DNA from: Pseudomonadota bacterium
Lineage (GTDB): Bacteria; Desulfobacterota; Desulfobacteria; Desulfobacterales; RPRI01
Assembly (NCBI GenBank): GCA_043825875.1
Contig: JBDRRF010000079.1
Coordinates: 1 to 64,000 of the forward strand
Direction: 5' to 3'
Length of the DNA: 64,000 bases
Each line of letters begins with the position of its first letter. The stretch's first letter is position 1. Below are positions 6,407 through 61,407 of the stretch, piece after piece. A model generated the notes under the pieces. It had not been told where the DNA came from, did not search any database, and saw only the letters and a program-made list of their open reading frames with translations. The position numbers and the translations under genes were made by a program.

Positions 6407-6482
6407 CAAGTATTCAAAAGTTCGGGGTTAAAACATAATCAGATTTCACTTGAACCCTTGACCCCTCGAATCCTTGAATCCT
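6407..6482. repeat. octamer-based palindromic intergenic repeat (TTGAACCC/TCGAATCC family)
   Basis: cttgaacccttgacccctcgaatccttgaatcc; related copies at 43793 and 61303. Confidence 0.7.
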
Positions 6483-6507
6483 AATAATTACAGAAAGGAA
6501 CAAAAAT

Positions 6508-16621: not shown

Positions 16622-16636
16622 ATTTTTTCATCTTTC

Positions 16637-16799
16637 GAGCCACTTTCAAAACGTTTCAGTTTGGTCAAGGTCAAGGCGGGTGAAAATTTTAACCGCAGGA
16701 ATACATGGAGTATTTCGAGGATAGCGCAATGCTTCACTACGTGCAAAATTTTCATCCAACGCTGAGATCGGCCGAAATGGGGCGTTTTGAAACTGGCTC
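16637..16799 (+). repeat. MITE-like structured repeat C, with ~22-nt insertion at 16723-16744
   Basis: GAGCCACTTTCAAAACG/CGTTTTGAAACTGGCTC termini; near-identical to the 21289 copy. Confidence 0.9.
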
Positions 16800-17537
16800 T
16801 TTCATCATTGTAAAAAGCTTTATTGATCCTGTTCTTTTTAACTGCCTGAAATTAGTACCCTCGCTTATATGTTTTAATGCAGTACTTACATCCGTAACTC
16901 TACTACCGGATATAATATCAAACCCGAAATCAAATATCACTTCGGTCATCGGAGTAGTCGGTCCCAAAAGCATTTTTAAACTGTTTTGCGGGCATAATTT
17001 TAATAGCTCCTGTAAAGTATGGTTTACCAATGTTGTGCTGGATATGGCTATAATATCTGATTGTGGAAGATATTTTTCGGCACTATCTTCAGGATAATCA
17101 CCTTCTATAGCTCTTTTTTCAATAACCCACAGATTCTTCGCCGTTTTTCTTAATGCATCGGTAAAAGGGAAATGCCCTATAACGGAAATATTTTTGTCTT
17201 GCCCATATTTTAACAATAACTCACCGGCATTGACATCAACAGTTTTTGATTCGTCAATTTCATTTAATGAATTTATTGCAGCAAGTCCTAATGAAGCTTT
17301 CGATATATCATATGAAAAACAATATTGCGCAAGTTCCATTGCAGTCATATCTGTAAGTGACACAGGAGTAATTTCTTCTCTTGCCTCGTGAGCACAGTGC
17401 TCGCCTATCATTGTTGATGAAAGCCCGCAATACCTGCTTACTACAGCAGTCCAGTGCAAACCTATCCTTACTTCCTGTATTTTCTCATCACCATCCAGAC
17501 TGTCCATAATGGCTCTTAAAATATACTGTCCATTCAT
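16752..17537 (-). CDS. DUF4213/DUF364 (putative heavy-metal chelation, Rossmann-like) protein
   Basis: GLHWTAV, ASLGLAAINS, VIGHFPF, TTLVNHT, LGPTTP; start moved to MNGQY because the longer ORF begins inside REP repeats. Confidence 0.8.
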   Translation of the reverse strand: MNGQYILRAIMDSLDGDEKIQEVRIGLHWTAVVSRYCGLSSTMIGEHCAHEAREEITPVSLTDMTAMELAQYCFSYDISKASLGLAAINSLNEIDESKTVDVNAGELLLKYGQDKNISVIGHFPFTDALRKTAKNLWVIEKRAIEGDYPEDSAEKYLPQSDIIAISSTTLVNHTLQELLKLCPQNSLKMLLGPTTPMTEVIFDFGFDIISGSRVTDVSTALKHISEGTNFRQLKRTGSIKLFTMMKEPVSKRPISADLSVG

Positions 17538-17600
17538 GTTTTGAATTCTGCTGTCTTTTAGCGTAGTTTCATCCAAATTATTTAATTCCCCTTGCATCCC

Positions 17601-17823
17601 GTAGAGACGCAAAATCTTGCGTCTCCACAATTTCGCGTCTCCACAATATCGCATCTCCACAATCCATTTATGTCTTGAAGGCTGCTATCTTTTACCGTAA
17701 TTTCATCCGAATGATTTAATTTCTCTTGTATCCTGTAGAAACGCAAAATCTTGCGTCTCTACGACCTTGCGTCTCTACATTTTGCATCTCCAAAATCTTG
17801 CGTCTCTATAATATCGTGTCCAT
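17601..17823. repeat. GTAG-type REP palindromes with tandem half-copies
   Basis: GTAGAGACGCAAAATCTTGCGTCTCCAC at 17601 and a variant at 17735, each followed by ~16-nt half repeats. Confidence 0.85.
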
Positions 17824-17878
17824 AAAATTCTGCATCTTAACGAACATGCGTATACACAAATATGGGGTAGGCTCCTGT

Positions 17879-21192: not shown

Positions 21193-21288
21193 TTATTCCC
21201 TTATTTTCACACTGTATTTTTTAAGATATGTTGTATGATTTAATAAATTGTGAAAAAAGATTCTTCTTTTTATGAAAAGGCATACTTC

Positions 21289-21433
21289 AGAGCCACTTTC
21301 AAAACGTTTCAGTTTGGTCAAGCTCAAGGCGGGCGAAAACTTCAACCACAGGAATACATTAAGTATTTCGAGGATTGAAATTTGAGCCCAACGCTTAAGA
21401 TCGGCCAAAATGGGGCGTTTTGAAACTGGCTCT
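21289..21433 (+). repeat. MITE-like structured repeat D
   Basis: same termini as 16637-16799; abuts the stop codon of the 21434 ORF. Confidence 0.9.
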
Positions 21434-21877
21434 TCAATTTGACTTTATCTTGGTTCTATTCAATCTAATAATTGCATCTTTAAATGAAATATATTCACCT
21501 TGATTACCATAATTTTTATATGGAACAACGGTGGGTTTTTTATGAACAATTCTTGCAATACCTTCCCTGAAACTGAAAAATTTTTCCTCATCCTTCTTTG
21601 AAAGATAAGGCTCTACTGCGGAAGATATCTTTATTTCATCATTTTTATCATCAGCAATTGGTTCAAATATAAAGCCGTCTTTTGCCGGAATTGCTCTTAC
21701 TTTTATATTTATTGTTCCGTTTACAGGTTTTGCGCCAGTTTGGGCTATAGCTTCCCGGCAGAACCTGTTTAACTCATCTATCCTGTTTTTAACCATAGGT
21801 TCATTGCCGGCTGATAATGGCAATGAACTTAATATTGTAAAGGATAAAACCATAAGAAATATCAAGATTTTTTTCAT
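21434..21877 (-). CDS. hypothetical exported protein
   Basis: AAGGAGG RBS, signal peptide MKKILIFLMVLSFTILSSLPLSA. Confidence 0.75.
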   Translation of the reverse strand: MKKILIFLMVLSFTILSSLPLSAGNEPMVKNRIDELNRFCREAIAQTGAKPVNGTINIKVRAIPAKDGFIFEPIADDKNDEIKISSAVEPYLSKKDEEKFFSFREGIARIVHKKPTVVPYKNYGNQGEYISFKDAIIRLNRTKIKSN

Positions 21878-21974
21878 ACAGCCTCCTTATGTTTATTGTA
21901 TAAATAATTTGAGCTTATTTAGCGTTACAATACCATTATTACATATTTCGGTCAATTTAATGTTTGTATTTAAT

Positions 21975-22203
21975 CAGGGTAACCGCATTTGGAAATAATG
22001 GTTTTGCGCAAACAGCCAAAACCGTCATACCGGACTTGATAAGCCTGCCCCGGCAGGTTGTAAGCCGGGGTTATCCAGAACCCAATGTAATTACTGGATA
22101 GCGCTAAAGGTTAGCGCTTATGCTTCACTACGTGTCACTTCGTGCCCTGCTTTTGCAGGAATGACAAAAGGAGTTGTTACTGTTTTTTATTTTCACTTCC
22201 CTA
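21975..22203. repeat. nested repeat: CAGGGTAACCGCATTTG MITE end enclosing a GTCATACCGG-type REP (22024-22165) with sub-insertions
   Basis: left end matches the 28271 element; REP arms gtcataccgg..tatccag..ctggat..gcaggaatgac match the 57181 REP. Confidence 0.7.
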
Positions 22204-22315
22204 AATCGTAAGACCATAAAAACGGTTTGAATTTGGCTAATACTTTTTCTTTTTCCTGTTTCATATTAATATTTATAGTATTTCTTGAGGCAACAATCAA
22301 TATTATAAAAATAAT

Positions 22316-22495
22316 GACCGCAAGTCCGGCGGTGAGCTGATATCGAGTTACTATTACACCCCGGGACCTGCCAACAACCGTTTATCCGTTGCCGAAGAAA
22401 GTAGAAGAACAGTCAATTACACCTATGACACCCTCTACCGCCTGACCCGGGAAGCCATTGCAGATCCTGCCCTGGGCAATGAGATCATCGGCTGT
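22316..22495 (+). pseudogene. RHS/YD-repeat protein fragment
   Basis: translates DRKSGGELISSYYYTPGPANNRLSVAEESRRTVNYTYDTLYRLTREAIADP; no start codon, GC-richer than flanks. Confidence 0.75.
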
Positions 22496-22701
22496 GCAAT
22501 GGTGGTAGTAATAAGTCTATGTTTTTATGTGATTTTAAATGATGTCTTTACAAATAGTAGTTTATGAAGAAGGATTAGTCTTTTTATCAGGAATGACCAA
22601 GCAAAGAAGTAAAATAAAATATATCAGCAGTTGCTCCCTTGGAGGGGGCTTGCTGAGGTATAGTTCTCCGGGGGAGCCTTACTTTAAAGAATTATTTTTG
22701 T

Positions 22702-22730
22702 TTGCTTTATGTAATCATGTGTGTTACAGT
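22702..22730 (+). promoter_or_regulatory. higBA sigma70 promoter with overlapping operator
   Basis: TTGCTT-17bp-TACAGT with extended -10 TG; TGTAA-N9-TTACA palindrome; ATG 5 nt after the -10 box. Confidence 0.6.
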
Positions 22731-22735
22731 GTATC

Positions 22736-23032
22736 ATGATTAAAAATTTTCGTGATAATTGGCTACGAGATTTTTTTATAGATGACATTCAATCTAAAAA
22801 AATACCTGTTGTCATTAGTTTACGATTATTTAGAAAGTTACAGTTACTTGATGATGCTATAAGTGATGCTGATTTAAGAAGTCCACCCAGCAATCATTTT
22901 GAAAAATTATCTGGTAAACTAAAGGACAAATGTTCAATACGTGTAAATGATCAATGGCGCATAATTTTTATTTGGGATGATGAACGTGGAGAAGCGGGTA
23001 GCATTTATCTTGATAATCATGCATATAAATGA
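22736..23032 (+). CDS. higB: HigB (RelE/ParE family) toxin
   Basis: MIKNF.., RKLQLLD, DLRSPPSNHFEKLSG, SIRVNDQWRIIF. Confidence 0.92.
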   Translation: MIKNFRDNWLRDFFIDDIQSKKIPVVISLRLFRKLQLLDDAISDADLRSPPSNHFEKLSGKLKDKCSIRVNDQWRIIFIWDDERGEAGSIYLDNHAYK

Positions 23033-23040
23033 GGCGAAAA

Positions 23041-23352
23041 ATGATTTTAACTAAACGTCAACCTGTCAGTGTTGGTGAAATGATAACTGAAGAATTTATG
23101 ATACCATTAGGAGTTACTCAGGGGCAACTTGCTACTGCAATGGGTGTCAGCCGTAGAACAGTAAATGAGCTTTGTACCGGCAAAAGATCTATCACCGTTG
23201 ACACTGCATTAATGCTGGCAAAAGTATTCGGCAATACCCCAAATTTTTGGCTCAATATACAGCAGCGCAATGATATATGGACAGCATTACACTCACCAAA
23301 GCGTATGGAAAAAATTGAGAGTGTTAAACCGATTCGTGAAGCGATGACTTGA
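23041..23352 (+). CDS. higA: HigA antitoxin (XRE HTH)
   Basis: GEMITEEFMIPLGVTQGQLA..GVSRRTVNEL..FWLNIQ. Confidence 0.93.
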   Translation: MILTKRQPVSVGEMITEEFMIPLGVTQGQLATAMGVSRRTVNELCTGKRSITVDTALMLAKVFGNTPNFWLNIQQRNDIWTALHSPKRMEKIESVKPIREAMT

Positions 23353-23540
23353 GTTTGATAATTATCTGACAGGCCAACCGTAGTAGATAACGCCCTTTAG
23401 TTATAAAGTTTATAATCTAAAAGGAGTTAAACAGGGTTGCATCTTAACTATTCAATATTGACATGCGTAAGGTAGTATAACAAGGTAGTAACTCAAATTT
23501 GTATGATATACGCAATCGGCCTCTACCTTTACGATGCCAA

Positions 23541-23724
23541 GGGTAGTAATAGGGGCGCTTTAAACTTACAAACTTATTTATTAAAAAGAAATACCTTTGT
23601 GAGTTTCTTGCTGCATATAACTGCTTTGCCAACAACCGTTAACAATAGATTCCTTCGGCTGGAAAGCGATATCAGTGTTATATACTAAATTAAGTTTAAT
23701 AGTATAATGCCATATTTACTCCCC
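23541..23724. mobile_element. ~190-bp inverted-repeat element, copy 1
   Basis: GGGTAGTAATAGGGGCGC..TATTTACTCCCC; homologous to the 24831 and 26006 copies. Confidence 0.85.
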
Positions 23725-23775
23725 AATACGAAACCTGACCGGCAACAGTATGCATGGTCACATAGAGGTTAAAGC

Positions 23776-24531
23776 ATGAATAGTCTAAAAAAGCATGAAA
23801 GTGTTTCTTATAAGTGGAGGTATATTTGGGGGGCTGTGGCGGTAAGCTGTTTCTTAGTGTTTGCATTCGGCTTGTACTATTTTCTTTGGGAATTCAATCC
23901 GCTTGTTAGCGATGAAGAGATGATTGCTCATTTTCGTGCCCACCGGGCCGAGTTCGAAGAGCTGGTCAGGCGCTATCGGGAATATCCACGCCCTCCTGAC
24001 AAAGACCACTCTTTTTGGTATAGGGAGGGAGATACCCCGGAGCTGATGCGACGTGCCGGGGTGGCTCGCCTTGCTCGTCTCATACCTGCCTGGTTCCCCA
24101 ACCCCTATTCTGTTGAGGCATCAAAGAGGTTCAGGGAGGCAATTACAAGTGGGACGGCCCGTAAGTTAGGGTTGTTTAACAAGTATGGTACAATTGGCAT
24201 TTCTCCTGTTTCCCAAAAATCGCCGCTGATTCAGGGCAACTCCAACCAGTATCATCTCATTACCCCTTTGCGTGGTGCAATCTGGAAAACTTATGCTCAT
24301 ATCCCGGAAATACCGCGCATCGAGGATGGCGAGCTGTTATGGCCTCTGACAATTGTAGGGAAAGGTGCTCCACTGACTTATTATAAAGAAATAGATGGAG
24401 TTCCGGTGTCACAAATACGAAAGCGAGTTCTTCCATCGTTAAACAAGTTTCCTGAGCAATGGAGGGATTATGAGTGTGTTTATAGGCAGATTGAAACGCA
24501 GTGGTTCATTCGCATGTGTAACGGTCATTAA
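23776..24531 (+). CDS. hypothetical membrane-anchored protein (candidate immunity protein)
   Basis: N-terminal TM helix, RBS GAGGT, GC-richer than neighbours, directly upstream of a truncated toxin-like gene. Confidence 0.7.
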   Translation: MNSLKKHESVSYKWRYIWGAVAVSCFLVFAFGLYYFLWEFNPLVSDEEMIAHFRAHRAEFEELVRRYREYPRPPDKDHSFWYREGDTPELMRRAGVARLARLIPAWFPNPYSVEASKRFREAITSGTARKLGLFNKYGTIGISPVSQKSPLIQGNSNQYHLITPLRGAIWKTYAHIPEIPRIEDGELLWPLTIVGKGAPLTYYKEIDGVPVSQIRKRVLPSLNKFPEQWRDYECVYRQIETQWFIRMCNGH

Positions 24532-24555
24532 CCATAAAAATTTAAGGAATAAGAT

Positions 24556-24830
24556 ATGGCAACCGTAACCTATTTGACTGATGCAGCCGACGAAACCTAC
24601 AAGGATGAAGCCTTTGGATATATCAAGCCGTTTGCAGGACATTTTATATGCCGCCGATGCTGTTGATATCTCCGCCGGAGCCATTGCGGGTGCAATGGTG
24701 GAGGAAAATAATGGCTATAATGATGTTGACAAATGGCTTGACCGCTATGCCGCATCATCCACCGATCCTGTTATTGCTGCCACGACTCTGCCGCTTGCAA
24801 TGGCTGGAGGCGCTACCGGGCTTGCCGCAT
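24556..24830 (+). pseudogene. frameshifted, 3'-truncated gene (possible secreted toxin N-terminus)
   Basis: AAGGA RBS; MATVTYLTDAADETYKDEAFGYI continues in another frame as SSRLQDILYAADAVDISAGAIAGAMVEENNGY..; ends at repeat copy 2. Confidence 0.55.
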
Positions 24831-25019
24831 GGGTAGTATTAAGTACGCATTAAACTTCCAAACTTATTTATTAAAAACAAATACCTTTTTACCTTTGTGA
24901 GTTTCTTGCTGCATATAACTGATTTGCCAACAGCCGTTACCGACAGATTCCATCGGCGGGAAAGCGATATCAGTGTTACATAATAAAGTTTAATAGTTGA
25001 ATGTCTCACTATTTACTCC
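24831..25019. mobile_element. ~190-bp inverted-repeat element, copy 2
   Basis: GGGTAGTATTAAGTACGCATTAAACT..CTATTTACTCC. Confidence 0.85.
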
Positions 25020-25192
25020 GTTGGTTATCAAGTAGTTAAATGGCGTGTATTATTAACACGGCAATTGAATACCTGACCGGAAATGGAGCAGCATTCTCTT
25101 AAACACTAATAAACCGTGCATACGTCGGAAGTATTGTTTGCTGTTGGTCTCCTATTTAATTGCCAGGTTAATAGAACCATGAATGAGGTAAA

Positions 25193-25984
25193 ATGCCACT
25201 AATAGTAAACTTATACTTTGAAAGTTTTGACGTTTTCAAGCTTGTCGATATTGCTGAACAAATCGAGAGTGATTGTAATCGAAAATTTACTGATAATTAC
25301 TTACGCTACTTCATACCACTCAAATTTGACGATGAATACCACTACACAAATATTCATGATTTTGAAGTGAAGCTAAAAAATAGGGGGGTAAAGGATCTTT
25401 TTTCAATATTTTTTACGGTAGAGGGCTCAGGAAAAATTCAAGGTACTGAAATAACTCTCATGCTTAAGCCAAAAATTAAAAAAAACATACCATTTGTTCA
25501 ATTATATTTTCAAATTGATGAAAACATCGTTAAGCATAGTCATATTGAAATCTTAAATAATTTAATAGAAAATTGTTCGTCACTTGGAAATATCCGATAT
25601 GGACTGTTAGATCAAATGCCATATTCAAAACTACCATTGTTGTATTATTTTGAAACTTTTAATGATGACCTTTCAAAAAAAGAAGAAAATCGTATTTATA
25701 CTTGGAAGATGCACAAAGACAAATACGACACTAAAATCTGGGATGTTTTTTTAGGAAACGTCTTTACGGAAAAGCATATATCTGGTGACCCCTCAATTAT
25801 TAATGAAATAAAGTCTATAGTTGGGCCGGATAATTTTATTGCTAAGAATAAATTATTTTTATTTGTTTTACCAATTAATAAGCATACAACAGATTTAACT
25901 GTTAAACTTGAAATGTTATTTAAAAACAAAAACCTATTAATGACACAACAAACAGAAGCTGATTACTATGATTCATTAACTTGA
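25193..25984 (+). CDS. hypothetical protein (candidate orphan immunity protein)
   Basis: GAGGT RBS, 263 aa, very AT-rich, bounded by repeat copies. Confidence 0.7.
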   Translation: MPLIVNLYFESFDVFKLVDIAEQIESDCNRKFTDNYLRYFIPLKFDDEYHYTNIHDFEVKLKNRGVKDLFSIFFTVEGSGKIQGTEITLMLKPKIKKNIPFVQLYFQIDENIVKHSHIEILNNLIENCSSLGNIRYGLLDQMPYSKLPLLYYFETFNDDLSKKEENRIYTWKMHKDKYDTKIWDVFLGNVFTEKHISGDPSIINEIKSIVGPDNFIAKNKLFLFVLPINKHTTDLTVKLEMLFKNKNLLMTQQTEADYYDSLT

Positions 25985-26005
25985 TTTTTATACCTCGCAA
26001 ATTGA

Positions 26006-26201
26006 GGGTAGTATTAGGGGCGCATTAAACTTACAAACTTATTTATTAAAAAGAAATACCTTTTTGCCTTTGTGAGTTTCTTGTTGCATATAACTGCTTT
26101 GCCTACAGCAGTTACCGATAGATTTCTTCGACGGGAATACGATATCAGTGTTATATACTACATTAAGTTTAATAGTTTAATACGTACTCTATTTACTTCC
26201 C
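26006..26201. mobile_element. ~190-bp inverted-repeat element, copy 3
   Basis: left GGGTAGTATTAGGGGCGCATTAAACT; right end reverse complement GGGAAGTAAATAGAGTACGTATTAAACT. Confidence 0.85.
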
Positions 26202-26282
26202 TATGGTTCAATTGCAGCTGGCATTTATTATATTACATATGAAATTTACGATTTAGTATATAGATAATTAAGGGCGAAAAAC

Positions 26283-26591
26283 ATGTGTGATTCACATAGA
26301 TTTTATTATGCAGGTACAAAGACTGAGATAAAGTTGGGTGATAACATTATATTTAAAAAGTTCTTTTTTAAAAAAATTAATGGCATAGTTTATTATATTC
26401 CAAGCCAGTCACCAGTAAATCCTGAAATGGAATATGAAAATGTAAAACATTGGACCATTAAATTAGATGATGGCAGAGTTATCTCATGGATATATTCACC
26501 CAATGAAGTACAACCGAGTAAAAGGGTCTTATTTATAAAGAGAGCAGATTTGGATAAAGAAGGGCTGCAACCTGAGGATAACTTAATTTGA
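26283..26591 (+). CDS. small hypothetical protein (candidate immunity protein)
   Basis: 102 aa, YYAGTKTEIKLGD..FIKRA, AT-rich. Confidence 0.65.
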   Translation: MCDSHRFYYAGTKTEIKLGDNIIFKKFFFKKINGIVYYIPSQSPVNPEMEYENVKHWTIKLDDGRVISWIYSPNEVQPSKRVLFIKRADLDKEGLQPEDNLI

Positions 26592-26804
26592 GGGCGATTG
26601 GGGTCTAAGGATAACTTTTGGAATATTTAAGTAAAGGTTGTGATGCCCTGAACCATCTGTCAAGCACGATTGCCCCGGATAGCGGAGTGACAATTGTAAC
26701 AAAATCAGAAAGGAGTTCTTTTGTGAGCGAAACAAAGAATCTTATTAATAATCTGATTTCATATTCATTTAAAATTTATTTTAGAAAGAGGGATATAAGA
26801 AGAA

Positions 26805-26944
26805 AGCGGCGGTCGGGATTGTTTGAACAGCAAAAAGTGGTTTTAAAGTGGTAAGCTGCTTATTCAAGCTGCTGTCACTCTTTTGAGAAGTGTATTCCAG
26901 TAAGCCATATCCGGTGATTTCTTGTTAAGGCTTTGATGCCGCCA
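26805..26944 (-). mobile_element. degenerate IS3-family transposase 3' end and right terminus
   Basis: frameshifted RHQ/ALNKKSPDMAYWNTL/..VTAA* followed by CTGTTCAAACAATCCCGACCGCCGCT. Confidence 0.45.
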
Positions 26945-27042
26945 TGAATGTTTACTGAATGTTTTACTGAAATTGCAGCTTTATTTTGACACCGCTATTG
27001 GTTTTACATAAAATCAGATAACAACAATCTGCTATTATAAGG

Positions 27043-28071
27043 ATGAAAGTTATGAATGATAATCAAAATCGGGCAATGGGCGCAGTAATGGGCACTCTGA
27101 TCGGTGATGCGCTTGGAGTCGGCCCTCACTGGTATTACGATCTTGACCAGTTAAAGAAAGATTACGGGGAATGGATCGACAATTATACTGAACCGAAAGC
27201 AAACAGATACCATGCAGGCCTTAAAGCAGGTGAAAACTCTCAAACCGGCCAGGTGGTAACAATGCTGCTTGAGTCAGTATCAGACTGCGGTGAATACGTG
27301 GAATCGGATTTTACAAACAGACTCGATGATCTTCTTAAAACACTGGACGGCACTCCTTCAAGCGGTAGATACACAGATAAAGTCATGCGTAATGTGTGGG
27401 TTTCCAGGCAAAAAAATGAGCTGGACTGGTCAGAAGCCGGTAGCTTTGGAGACACAGCCGAAGCCGCAATCAGGACACCTGTTTTGGCTGCCCACTATTA
27501 CAGAGATATTAAAAGCCTTATGAATACCTTACGATCAAATGTTTTGCTGACTCACCGCGACCCTTTCATTGCAGGTCAATCGGCTGCTTTCGGTTTAATT
27601 ATAAGCTGCCTTATTGAAGGTAACAATCTGGGAGATGTTTCAAAAATTATTTTCAAAAAAGCCTCCAAGGAAAATATTCACACGGTAATTGAAGTGCCGG
27701 ATCACCATAATGGAAAAAGAGCAGTATCATTCAATGATGCTCTGCTTCAGCCTTCCTGGTCATATAAAGCGGCAAATGATCCGGCTATTAAAATTGAGCC
27801 TGCTCTGGCGGTCTGCCGTCTTTTCGGCCTGGCCTGCACCTTGGGATTTATGCTGCCTGCTGCATATTATTTGGCATCACGTTTTGAAAATGATTTTTAT
27901 AAAGCCGTTATGTCAGCACTAAACGGCGGGGGGAATAACATGGCACGTGCCGCCCTAACCGGGGCTTTGGTAGGTGCACAGGTCGGTCTTGACGGAATAC
28001 CGAAAAACCTCATCAAAGGCCTTTTCGATCATGAACGTTTGCTGAATATGGCGGAAAAGATTACTGCGTAG
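27043..28071 (+). CDS. ADP-ribosylglycohydrolase-family protein
   Basis: GTLIGDALG, LTH, ALNGGGNNMARAALTGALVGA..GIP. Confidence 0.85.
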   Translation: MKVMNDNQNRAMGAVMGTLIGDALGVGPHWYYDLDQLKKDYGEWIDNYTEPKANRYHAGLKAGENSQTGQVVTMLLESVSDCGEYVESDFTNRLDDLLKTLDGTPSSGRYTDKVMRNVWVSRQKNELDWSEAGSFGDTAEAAIRTPVLAAHYYRDIKSLMNTLRSNVLLTHRDPFIAGQSAAFGLIISCLIEGNNLGDVSKIIFKKASKENIHTVIEVPDHHNGKRAVSFNDALLQPSWSYKAANDPAIKIEPALAVCRLFGLACTLGFMLPAAYYLASRFENDFYKAVMSALNGGGNNMARAALTGALVGAQVGLDGIPKNLIKGLFDHERLLNMAEKITA

Positions 28072-28092
28072 GATTAGGTCTGGAAAAACCAT

Positions 28093-28130
28093 AAAAAAAG
28101 GGCTGCGGGAAAACCGCGCCCTATTGTTTT
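28093..28130. terminator. bidirectional intrinsic terminator
   Basis: A-tract, AGGGCTGCGG-gaaaa-CCGCGCCCT hairpin, T-tract, between the convergent ADP-ribosylglycohydrolase gene and tRNA. Confidence 0.75.
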
Positions 28131-28133
28131 TGC

Positions 28134-28210
<77 letters not shown>

Positions 28211-43766: not shown

Positions 43767-43792
43767 AAAATCCCTCTTATTAATAAACTTTG

Positions 43793-43875
43793 AGGATTCA
43801 AGTGGTCGAGGGTTCAAGATAGATATCAATCACATCTATGCCTTGAGCCCTTGAATCCTTGACCCCTGGAACCCT
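43793..43875. repeat. octamer-based palindromic repeat
   Basis: ggattcaagtggtcgagggttcaag..cttgagcccttgaatccttgacccctggaaccc. Confidence 0.75.
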
Positions 43876-43876
43876 T

Positions 43877-44557
43877 TCAGCTAAAACAATTTAAATCCGT
43901 TAAAGCTGACACCATCTCATCAAATACTGCTTTTTCTGATGCTGTAACAACATTTTCAAAATTCAAGTTTTTTTTGTTTAATACATTATCTTCTTTTTCC
44001 AAAACAAATGCTATGGCACAAGACTCTTCTGCTTTAACTGCTATCATTGTGGGAGTTTCTTTATCGGTTATGCTTTTTTTTGCAAAATACAACATAGAAG
44101 AAAATTTTCTATCGCTAAAAGACATATGAAGCAACGGGCCGGATAATCCAAAATGAATGGCAGCCTCTGCCATAGGAGTTGACGGCAGCGTATATATAAA
44201 AAGATTTCCTCTGGCAAGTATTCTCCCGCTCTCAATATAATCTTTATAGTAATTAATATTCGATTCAAGGCATCCTTGTTCATTGGTGCCCAAAACCCCT
44301 ATATCACTTTTATCCGCATGTTTTTGGTCATAAGAATAGATTATACCTGCATCTTTTAATGCAAGTGCTACACTAAAGCATGTATTTTTTGATATAATAT
44401 CAAATCTTTTAAAGTTTTTTACAGGGTATGAAAAAATTGATTCATTTTTAAAACAAGCATACAAGGAATCAAACCCTTTATACGATTTTTTATGTTTTCC
44501 GATAGTATATCCGTATTCTTTATCGTCAAGCCAGCCTATGCCCGTTACAACAATCAT
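43877..44557 (-). CDS. short ketosynthase N-terminal-like protein (CLF-like)
   Basis: NFKRFD, RGNLFIYTLPSTP..AAIHFGLSGP; no active-site Cys motif. Confidence 0.75.
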   Translation of the reverse strand: MIVVTGIGWLDDKEYGYTIGKHKKSYKGFDSLYACFKNESIFSYPVKNFKRFDIISKNTCFSVALALKDAGIIYSYDQKHADKSDIGVLGTNEQGCLESNINYYKDYIESGRILARGNLFIYTLPSTPMAEAAIHFGLSGPLLHMSFSDRKFSSMLYFAKKSITDKETPTMIAVKAEESCAIAFVLEKEDNVLNKKNLNFENVVTASEKAVFDEMVSALTDLNCFS

Positions 44558-61064: not shown

Positions 61065-61289
61065 TTACTGGTTCCCTAACCCGTTCTGACCTCCACAGTC
61101 AGGGCACTGCCAGGTAATTCCATTACATGACATTCCCCAGAAATTTTCTTCCATGCAGACCTGGCATATGGTGAAACCACACCTGCACCTCCAGCAAAAA
61201 GGAGCTTCCTGTTTGCAGCAGTAACAATTGCTTTCTTTTGCCTTGCGGCGTTTTTCTCTGTATGTTAGTTTAGTCGGATTATTTGTCAT
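61065..61289 (-). CDS. small Cys-rich zinc-finger (RING-like) protein
   Basis: 11 Cys in 74 aa: CYCC..CRCGFTICQVC..CPDC. Confidence 0.7.
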   Translation of the reverse strand: MTNNPTKLTYREKRRKAKESNCYCCKQEAPFCWRCRCGFTICQVCMEENFWGMSCNGITWQCPDCGGQNGLGNQ

Positions 61290-61302
61290 AGTTATAAAAA
61301 AT

Positions 61303-61407
61303 AGGGTTCAAGGTTTCCAGGGTTCGAGGGTTCAAGTGAGGATTCAGGTGATCAAATATACCTTTTTTTTTCGCTCGAACCCTTGACCACTCGAATCCTT
61401 GAACCCT
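61303..61407. repeat. octamer-based palindromic repeat
   Basis: gggttcaaggtttccagggttcgagggttcaag..ctcgaacccttgaccactcgaatccttgaaccc. Confidence 0.8.

Follow-up and report, generated by a model that had tools for sequence, protein, structure and literature searches.

Miniature TIRtrons delimit an array of toxin fragments, putative immunity genes and a toxin-antitoxin module in a member of the Desulfobacterales

The window analysed here comprises the first 64,000 nucleotides of contig JBDRRF010000079.1 from a genome placed in the Desulfobacterales (GenBank assembly GCA_043825875.1), and the subject of this report is a block within it (21974-27019) in which toxin fragments, orphan genes and a higBA toxin-antitoxin module are separated by three copies of a repeat. 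Judged from the comparisons below, these repeats are internally deleted, non-coding TIRtrons (TIRYT, subclass 2.1) that have lost most of their transposase gene. We put at roughly 0.6 the probability that the array was built by TIRYT transposases joining element ends to new DNA, with units of cargo plus end entering, leaving and reordering at resident ends. The question addressed is how orphan immunity and toxin-antitoxin genes gather into arrays outside integrons. G000 denotes the source genome, C79 the contig of the window, G008, G009 and G013 the other genomes compared (G008 being a close relative, 94-98% identical in the flanks of the block), and L numbers designate fetched loci.

The three repeats lie in one orientation on the + strand at 23541-23724 (copy 1), 24831-25020 (copy 2) and 26006-26201 (copy 3), as an earlier sequence-only reading of this DNA had proposed. 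They are 184-196 bp long and share 86.8-89.1% pairwise identity over ungapped columns (BLAST E values of 1e-49 to 1e-57). Their imperfect terminal inverted repeats of about 35 bp, also part of that reading, are clearest in copy 3, where they are best preserved, the right ends of copies 1 and 2 being decayed. As DNA the copies fold weakly (-15 to -18 kcal/mol over 184-196 bases), and a REP-like stem at the end is absent. A fourth, partial copy was found on C41 between ordinary genes and a full copy, 71-73% alike, in G013. With terminal inverted repeats, no coding capacity and several copies, the repeats have the traits of miniature inverted-repeat transposable elements. An IS1-type element of this sort, suggested by the GGTAG end, was rejected on account of the TIRYT-derived interior and the absence of a target duplication; a palindromic empty target made of the outer 11 bases was also discarded, with 0 such sites genome-wide.

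The genome contains 13 Y1_Tnp matches, five of them within open frames of 318-338 amino acids. The ends of the window repeats match the flanks of the Y1 gene at C83:70454-71458 and of its relatives in congeners. The interior, translated on the minus strand, where copy 1 carries its transposase remnant, resembles the last ~38 residues of the C83 transposase, and tblastn showed the same overlap in L003, L004, L009 and L017. With ends like the flanks of Y1 genes and an interior like the C-terminus of the transposase, each repeat is a TIRtron that has lost most of its gene, which bears out the earlier proposal of non-integron delimiters derived from an HUH transposase. Inverted repeats homologous to the window ends flank Y1 genes at C83:70396-71484, at the intact gene of G008 C134, and in L016 and L019. 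The transposases carry HuH (HFH) and Y---NP (YIHLNP) motifs and a C-terminal helix-turn-helix; Bac_DnaA_C gave E 0.003, below the cut-off, for the two closest proteins and 2e-12 for the C75 protein. A further TIRYT of 335 amino acids, 59% alike, lies at C79:72412. Many TIRYT genes of the genome are decayed.

TIRtrons are described, in the part of the source available to us (PMC3733652), as a long Y1 transposase, ending in a C-terminal helix-turn-helix, that is enclosed by inverted ends containing a GGGG[AT]C core. The definition of TnpA-Y1 subclass 2.1 follows the available text of Quentin et al. 2018 (PMC6006769), which reports subclass 2.1 transposases in 14.9% of the strains surveyed. The transposase-linked ends seen here read GGGGAC[AG], the first six bases fitting the core GGGG[AT][CG]A[CG] and the last two not, and the cores of the window copies are worn (GGGGCGC, AGTACGC and GAGTACG). 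Ends of this element occur in 12 of 16 congeners and in one of 44 other genomes of the order. At L075 (G008:C134:28000-47800) we observed one intact TIRYT gene and three stubs, the same left end standing before each with different genes joined upstream.

The structure of the joints between ends and cargo is central to the argument. Each copy stands at a seam between apparently unrelated stretches of DNA. At copies 2 and 3 the left and right flanks come from unrelated DNA and are not halves of one locus, so these two copies are not simple insertions; target duplications, which the sequence-only reading had named as the sign of plain insertion into a pre-existing locus, are missing from the true ends of the copies. 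Counted outward from the GGGGAC core, the joints are reached after about 8-11 bases. The end contributes about 8 bases and the flank a G or GG. At the point where the window passes through TGG into the end, homologs of the RTX gene cut at copy 2 retain a Trp codon. The same structure recurs in three G008/G000 pairs and in one further pair, and in one of the G008/G000 pairs the entire G-rich linker seems target-derived. At the 26200 break, an X3 contig continues uncut upstream and shows a GGTAGT look-alike on the bottom strand (by eye). Among the 93 ends detected in the genome, 29 have a homolog of the outer flank that ends within 40 bases; by hand count, homology is lost 4-14 bases outside the core in 17 of these 29, at 0-2 bases in 4 and at 18-40 bases in 8. 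Linkers are stacked in tandem at several places. In the IS200/IS605 and REP kinds of HUH enzyme, cut sites are selected through four-base guides, according to the available part of PMC8266576, and by analogy TIRYT may choose its own cut sites in this manner.

Ends are enriched at RHS loci, both in this genome and across the class, and they are polarised. A strict scan with seven pattern families found 93 ends genome-wide against 9 in a reversed-sequence control, most of them away from RHS loci (a loose scan, with 170 against 117, was discarded as noisy). Once 16 stacked ends had been removed, 17 of the remaining 77 had a stop codon in the same direction no more than 30 bases outward, compared with a mean of 5.7 and a maximum of 14 in 200 draws of an intergenic control; on the inner side, 2 of 77 had one. 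Of 26 end clusters, nine are no more than 4 kb away from an RHS core, such DNA making up 1.2% of the genome, and 10 of the 11 hits near RHS cores are on the RHS strand. Class-wide, 27 end motifs occurred in 55.6 kb of non-coding DNA from 20 RHS regions chosen for strong cores, nine of which carry ends, against 2 in 53.3 kb from 19 controls; a weakness of this contrast is that the controls were mostly core genome rather than other islands. Scatter of the repeat over the genome free of any cargo bias had been held to be fatal to the sequence-only reading: ends of the family are indeed scattered, with the enrichment at RHS loci given above. Y1 genes were present in 4 of the 20 RHS regions and in 4 of 27 loci of homologs of a 251-amino acid cargo protein described below, against 0 of 19 controls, counts too few for weight. 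As a separate observation, RHS orphan arrays with TIRtron ends behind putative immunity genes are found on C17, C23, C33, C72, C74, C86, C96 and C116 of the source genome, and on C17 an RHS tip that breaks off a few codons short of the DPxG motif lies directly against the end of a TIRYT gene.

Congeners extend the picture, their end-delimited cargo being mostly toxin-antitoxin pairs. For the capture idea, the best test is offered by a 12.3-kb contig of a congener (G009:C76; L071, 1-12340) that holds about 15 toxin-antitoxin modules between co-oriented TIRtron ends. Of its end motifs, which belong to several subfamilies and include stacked linkers, 27 of 29 are on the gene strand (3 motifs in the reversed control), and 16 of the 17 genes scanned have a Pfam hit, mostly to toxin-antitoxin families. 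A comparison of cassette content and order between strains, which the sequence-only reading had called for, revealed both gain or loss and reordering. On C34, G008 has a 929-bp unit composed of an end, a gene pair with a PIN toxin and a linker, at which G000 (C89) has a single hybrid end between the same flanks. In the C38/C135 comparison two units have exchanged places and an extra gene pair is present in G008, and in the C83/C134 comparison different DNA is joined to the same left end. A comparison at C51 showed nothing at an end. Since the compared loci were chosen for holding ends, these are examples and not a rate.

In the mechanism that we favour, a TIRYT transposase encoded elsewhere would use a short G-rich look-alike in foreign DNA to join that DNA to an end, making the joints by single-strand cleavage and rejoining such as IS200/IS605 and TnpA-REP enzymes perform. 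Units of cargo plus end might travel as circles or enter via recombination between ends, by analogy with IS26 arrays, and would be gained, lost and reordered at ends already present, while selection would retain intact immunity and toxin-antitoxin genes as toxins are cut. An RHS orphan module region probably served as the landing place here: at both its borders the block consists of sequence from RHS arrays of this genome. Three stretches show the kinship: 22196-22493, which resembles an array on C96; 26614-26802 on the + strand, spacer DNA common to the RHS arrays (86.9% to C96:4057-3974 and 86.5% to C74:1288-1398); and half of higA, which lies in an array on C74. Even coverage of about 28x together with overlapping contigs, in what is likely the source run, indicates that the block is no assembly artefact.

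Several observations weigh against this reading. The block is absent beside both flanks in G008, but these flanks are unlinked there, on separate contigs, and no empty site was found for comparison. A shorter allele in a contig of run X2 skips 23369-26804, passing from higA to the right flank with all three copies missing, and its joints are not at ends. The RHS cut at 22493 sits 10 bases from the motif at 22504. The TIRYT gene of the source genome that matches best (C83) has a nonsense codon, although it is intact in G008, and our literature search, in the texts available, met no reported activity for any subclass 2.1 enzyme. At 60 of the 77 ends there is no stop codon within 30 bases. The own-genome test of the RHS link is inflated, since one of the end seeds was taken from a Y1 gene next to an RHS piece and the RHS arrays are located at contig ends; across the class, 11 of the 20 RHS regions have no end, so RHS arrays do not require them, and the strand relative to RHS is split 15 to 12, five of the 12 coming from a single locus whose RHS cores occupy both strands. 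Recombination between two similar ends could explain the 929-bp difference as a plain loss, two of four extra G008 comparisons yielded little, and no circles or excised forms were seen in the contigs, the only material searched for them.

The strongest competing explanation, to which we give about half the credence of the favoured one, is that selfish TIRtrons and their miniatures inserted into dispensable islands and were then reduced by one-sided deletion and trimming through host recombination, the array being compacted debris in which selection left immunity and toxin-antitoxin genes. It accords well with the spread of ends over the whole genome, mostly outside RHS loci, with the many decayed TIRYT genes, with the fourth copy between ordinary genes on C41 and with toxins cut mid-gene, as well as with the position of a block that starts and ends in own RHS-array DNA and lies where synteny breaks, 1.5 kb away from a tRNA gene. 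Random insertion, however, predicts neither the 27 of 29 co-oriented ends in G009, nor stacked linkers, nor ends behind stop codons, nor the reordering of units, and it would need four unrelated loci to have formerly stood in a row here. The copies are, moreover, older than the joints: they differ from one another by 11-13%, whereas the cargo behind copy 3 is 95% like the X3 contig, which also argues against a recent amplification of the copies in place.

A far less probable reading treats the ends as passive homology patches, the transposase only seeding them and end-bearing foreign DNA entering by RecA between ends or RHS cores. The hybrid end at C89, the RHS-array DNA on both sides of the block and the greater homology offered by full 190-bp copies than by solo ends would suit it, but solo ends are imperfect and only about 35 bp long, the window copies are merely 87-89% alike, and the first joint of cargo to end is left unexplained. 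Least probable, and very unlikely, is that TIRtrons entered, at a later stage, an array of integron or tyrosine-recombinase origin (CALIN or rAID-like): toxin-antitoxin pairs and small genes in one orientation are typical of cassettes and the genome has four integron integrases, but the nearest of these (C79:66182) is outside the window and about 39 kb from the block, so that no intI/attI stands at the array head, no recombinase open reading frame (XerD-like included) lies in or beside the block, cargo is cut mid-gene, and neither a reading of the intergenic sequence nor a weak, crude scan, which recovered 1 site in 4 integrase-flanking controls, gave an attC-like site in 21901-27100 or in the G009:C76 array. 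The sequence-only reading, too, had seen neither intI nor attC.

If TIRYT does join ends to new DNA as we favour, a wider proposal follows, which we regard as tentative and somewhat improbable: TIRYT and its ends would form an undescribed, integron-independent gene-cassette system in which an HUH enzyme captures, at a short G-rich signal, DNA outside its end and inserts, removes and reorders cassettes of gene plus end at ends already resident, giving rise in many bacteria to arrays of toxin-antitoxin, immunity and polymorphic-toxin genes. No description of such a role was found in a literature search that left most subscription journals and supplements aside; Fig. 9 and Additional file 5 of Di Nocera et al., also beyond that search, could name this end family. 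Were ends indeed sites of capture or entry, a common enzyme family without a known job would gain a function, and a second route to cassette arrays would exist. The rule for joints seen here (no duplication, a G-run, a position some 10 bases beyond the core) would then offer a direct assay.

The cargo, all on the + strand, begins with part of an RHS orphan module (22196-22493), its leader with an internal repeat piece, 93.6% identical to C96:6074-5777. As the C96 array continues in frame past the point matching 22493, the piece is an internal fragment of the genome's own arrays and not a toxin tip. The RHS gene had been thought to stop just before 22504; a cut near that position does exist, but homology ends at 22493, ten bases short and within internal repeat sequence. 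The sites at 22504 and 23381 had likewise been taken for degenerate left ends: both are worn ends, but of other TIRtron subfamilies, and the second begins at 23380. The first (22504-22545) has lost its GGGGAC core and matches an end upstream of a 92%-identical higBA in G013, with which this solo end travels; the join of RHS, 22504 end and higB is present in a contig of run X2 as well. The second (23380-23407) resembles by eye the end of the TIRYT gene at C79:72412, is missed by the strict patterns, and is shared by C74 up to 23397. Two GGTAGTA motifs at 23471-23491 may be stacked end linkers, a weak case read from the motifs themselves.

Between these ends lies the higBA module recognised earlier, with higB at 22721-23032 (Pfam PF05015, HigB, E 5e-27) and higA at 23029-23352 (TIGR02607, over the cut-off). 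The 3' half of higA recurs in the RHS array at C74:5615-5891 (94.9%). The G013 homolog of the module is flanked by ends on both sides, whereas nine other loci viewed by eye show no such pair.

Behind copy 1, a foreign gene at 23776-24531 encodes a 251-amino acid protein with an N-terminal hydrophobic helix, which had no Pfam or NCBIfam family and 91 protein matches at E<=0.001, itself included. Its model is confident (predicted local distance difference test score, pLDDT, 92.6) with no solved-fold match above Z 4.0. Members of this family often stand directly upstream of type I-secreted RTX proteins: RTX motifs were found downstream of homologs in 14 of 27 loci, seven of the 27 being too short to tell, and the position suggests an immunity or accessory role, in which the protein might guard against the N-terminus of the RTX protein. 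We also observed that the family (~90 proteins) has two invariant C-terminal cysteines and stands upstream of RTX giants, sometimes of only an RTX stub. In the window it is followed by the N-terminal piece of an RTX-repeat protein (24556-24830), two frames of which match RTX proteins of 2000-2700 amino acids. This gene had been described as stopping at 24831; it is cut there by copy 2, RTX homology reaching residue 82 of the 83 in the second piece, but is also frameshifted near 24620. Neither the 251-amino acid gene nor the RTX piece has a further copy in the source genome.

No match for 25021-25192 was found in the sequences compared. The 263-amino acid orphan gene that follows (25193-25984) is likely an immunity gene to an RHS toxin. 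A search returned 68 proteins at E<=0.001 (itself and 67 remote homologs), no Pfam family in 28 homologs, and no occurrence in 300 other genomes of the phylum. The single-sequence fold is of low quality (pLDDT 40.8) with no solved relative found, and Atlas structure neighbours fall in TsiV, Imm52, Imm64 and DUF5953 clusters, mostly under the naming bar. The homologs in the two loci obtained overlap the stop of the gene before them; in L093 RHS motifs are visible by eye in that preceding gene, which has the same start as an adjacent RHS-core protein, although it has no family match itself. The sequence-only reading had suggested looking for cargo homologs beside full toxins; the RTX and RHS-type contexts above link the cargo to toxin loci.

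Copy 3 is followed by the start-less 3' tail of a longer gene (26202-26267), which begins exactly at the end of the copy as had been noticed, so that cargo is cut at the repeats both here and at 24831. The comparison rests on the X3 contig of 1192 bases, a 95% match to 26200-26636 preceded by 755 other bases, of which the 30 shown keep the frame open (by eye). Next comes the intact small gene of that reading, which encodes 102 amino acids in an immunity-gene position (26283-26591). It has one other homolog (54%), no family, no metagenome locus, and Atlas hits all under 0.9. A GGGGTC-type end-like site, identified by eye, lies immediately 3' of its stop codon (26592-26612) and is present in the X3 contig with three changes.

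The cargo differs in G+C content, as had been seen by inspection (47.6%, 30.3% and 30.3%, against 39.1% for the genome). The RTX pair and the RHS-type immunity gene tie the cargo to toxin loci, but to speak of a dedicated interbacterial-defence array goes too far. Only one cargo gene has good immunity evidence, the RHS piece is home-grown and ends are found genome-wide; the cargo is general accessory DNA, not solely interbacterial defence.

Other features were recorded around the block. A second multi-copy palindromic repeat occupies its left edge (21974-22194), where synteny with G008 stops. To the right, a tRNA-Pro gene (28134-28210) was the sole Rfam match, and G008 has, between an ADP-ribosylglycohydrolase gene and this tRNA gene, a 3-kb gene (L058:1776-4863, compared with window 28076-28093) that the source genome is without. 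A ~165-bp hairpin repeat that recurs many times across the genome is present twice, at 16632-16804 and 21285-21437, an array of 16-bp tandem units at 17529-17837 overlaps a gene start, and clusters of a dispersed 8-base unit (TTGAACCC-like), in both orientations, are found at 6444-6507, 43774-43883 and 61278-61407.

IS26 is a DDE element, while integrons hold polarised arrays with a site often right behind the stop codon, carry toxin-antitoxin cargo and gain, lose and reorder cassettes. The arrays described here are like integrons in these respects, but have no intI or attC at the array (attC by crude scan), and their cargo can be cut mid-gene. In IS26 arrays (Harmer and Hall 2021, PMC7885326, as far as the available text goes) genes are similarly interspersed with directly oriented elements and entry occurs at a resident copy. 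IS26, however, needs identical ends, whereas the copies here are HUH-derived, non-coding and 87-89% alike, and solo ends suffice as delimiters. The accessible parts of the accounts of rAID-1 arrays (bioRxiv 10.1101/471110) and polyimmunity loci (Zhang et al. 2012, PMC3482391) describe orphan immunity genes that are low in GC, point the same way and have motifs repeated between them, an organisation that the block resembles; unlike rAID-1 it has no 5' XerD-like recombinase, includes toxin pieces and higBA, and is delimited by transposon ends. With REP/TnpA-REP groups 2 and 3 (Corneloup et al. 2021, PMC8266576, in the part available) it shares the HUH family and, for this subfamily, an end starting with GTAG. 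A short REP hairpin, that is, a GTAG-tagged hairpin of 20-40 bases in many copies, was not found, the ends are inverted repeats 190 bp apart, the subclass is different, and GTAG is not kept in other end subfamilies. The descriptions of TIRtrons and TIRYT (Di Nocera et al. 2013, PMC3733652; Quentin et al. 2018, PMC6006769), in their available portions, have solo, paired and clustered ends in common with our observations and give no gene-capture role, cargo bias or joint structure; the form seen here is in contrast a 190-bp internal deletion. The array thus resembles an IS26 array or an integron in layout and rAID-1 in part of its cargo, and is a member of none of them. The element is of a described kind, the TIRtron, and this locus adds to it the joint structure, the controlled counts of polarity, the gain or loss of units and the link with polymorphic-toxin loci.

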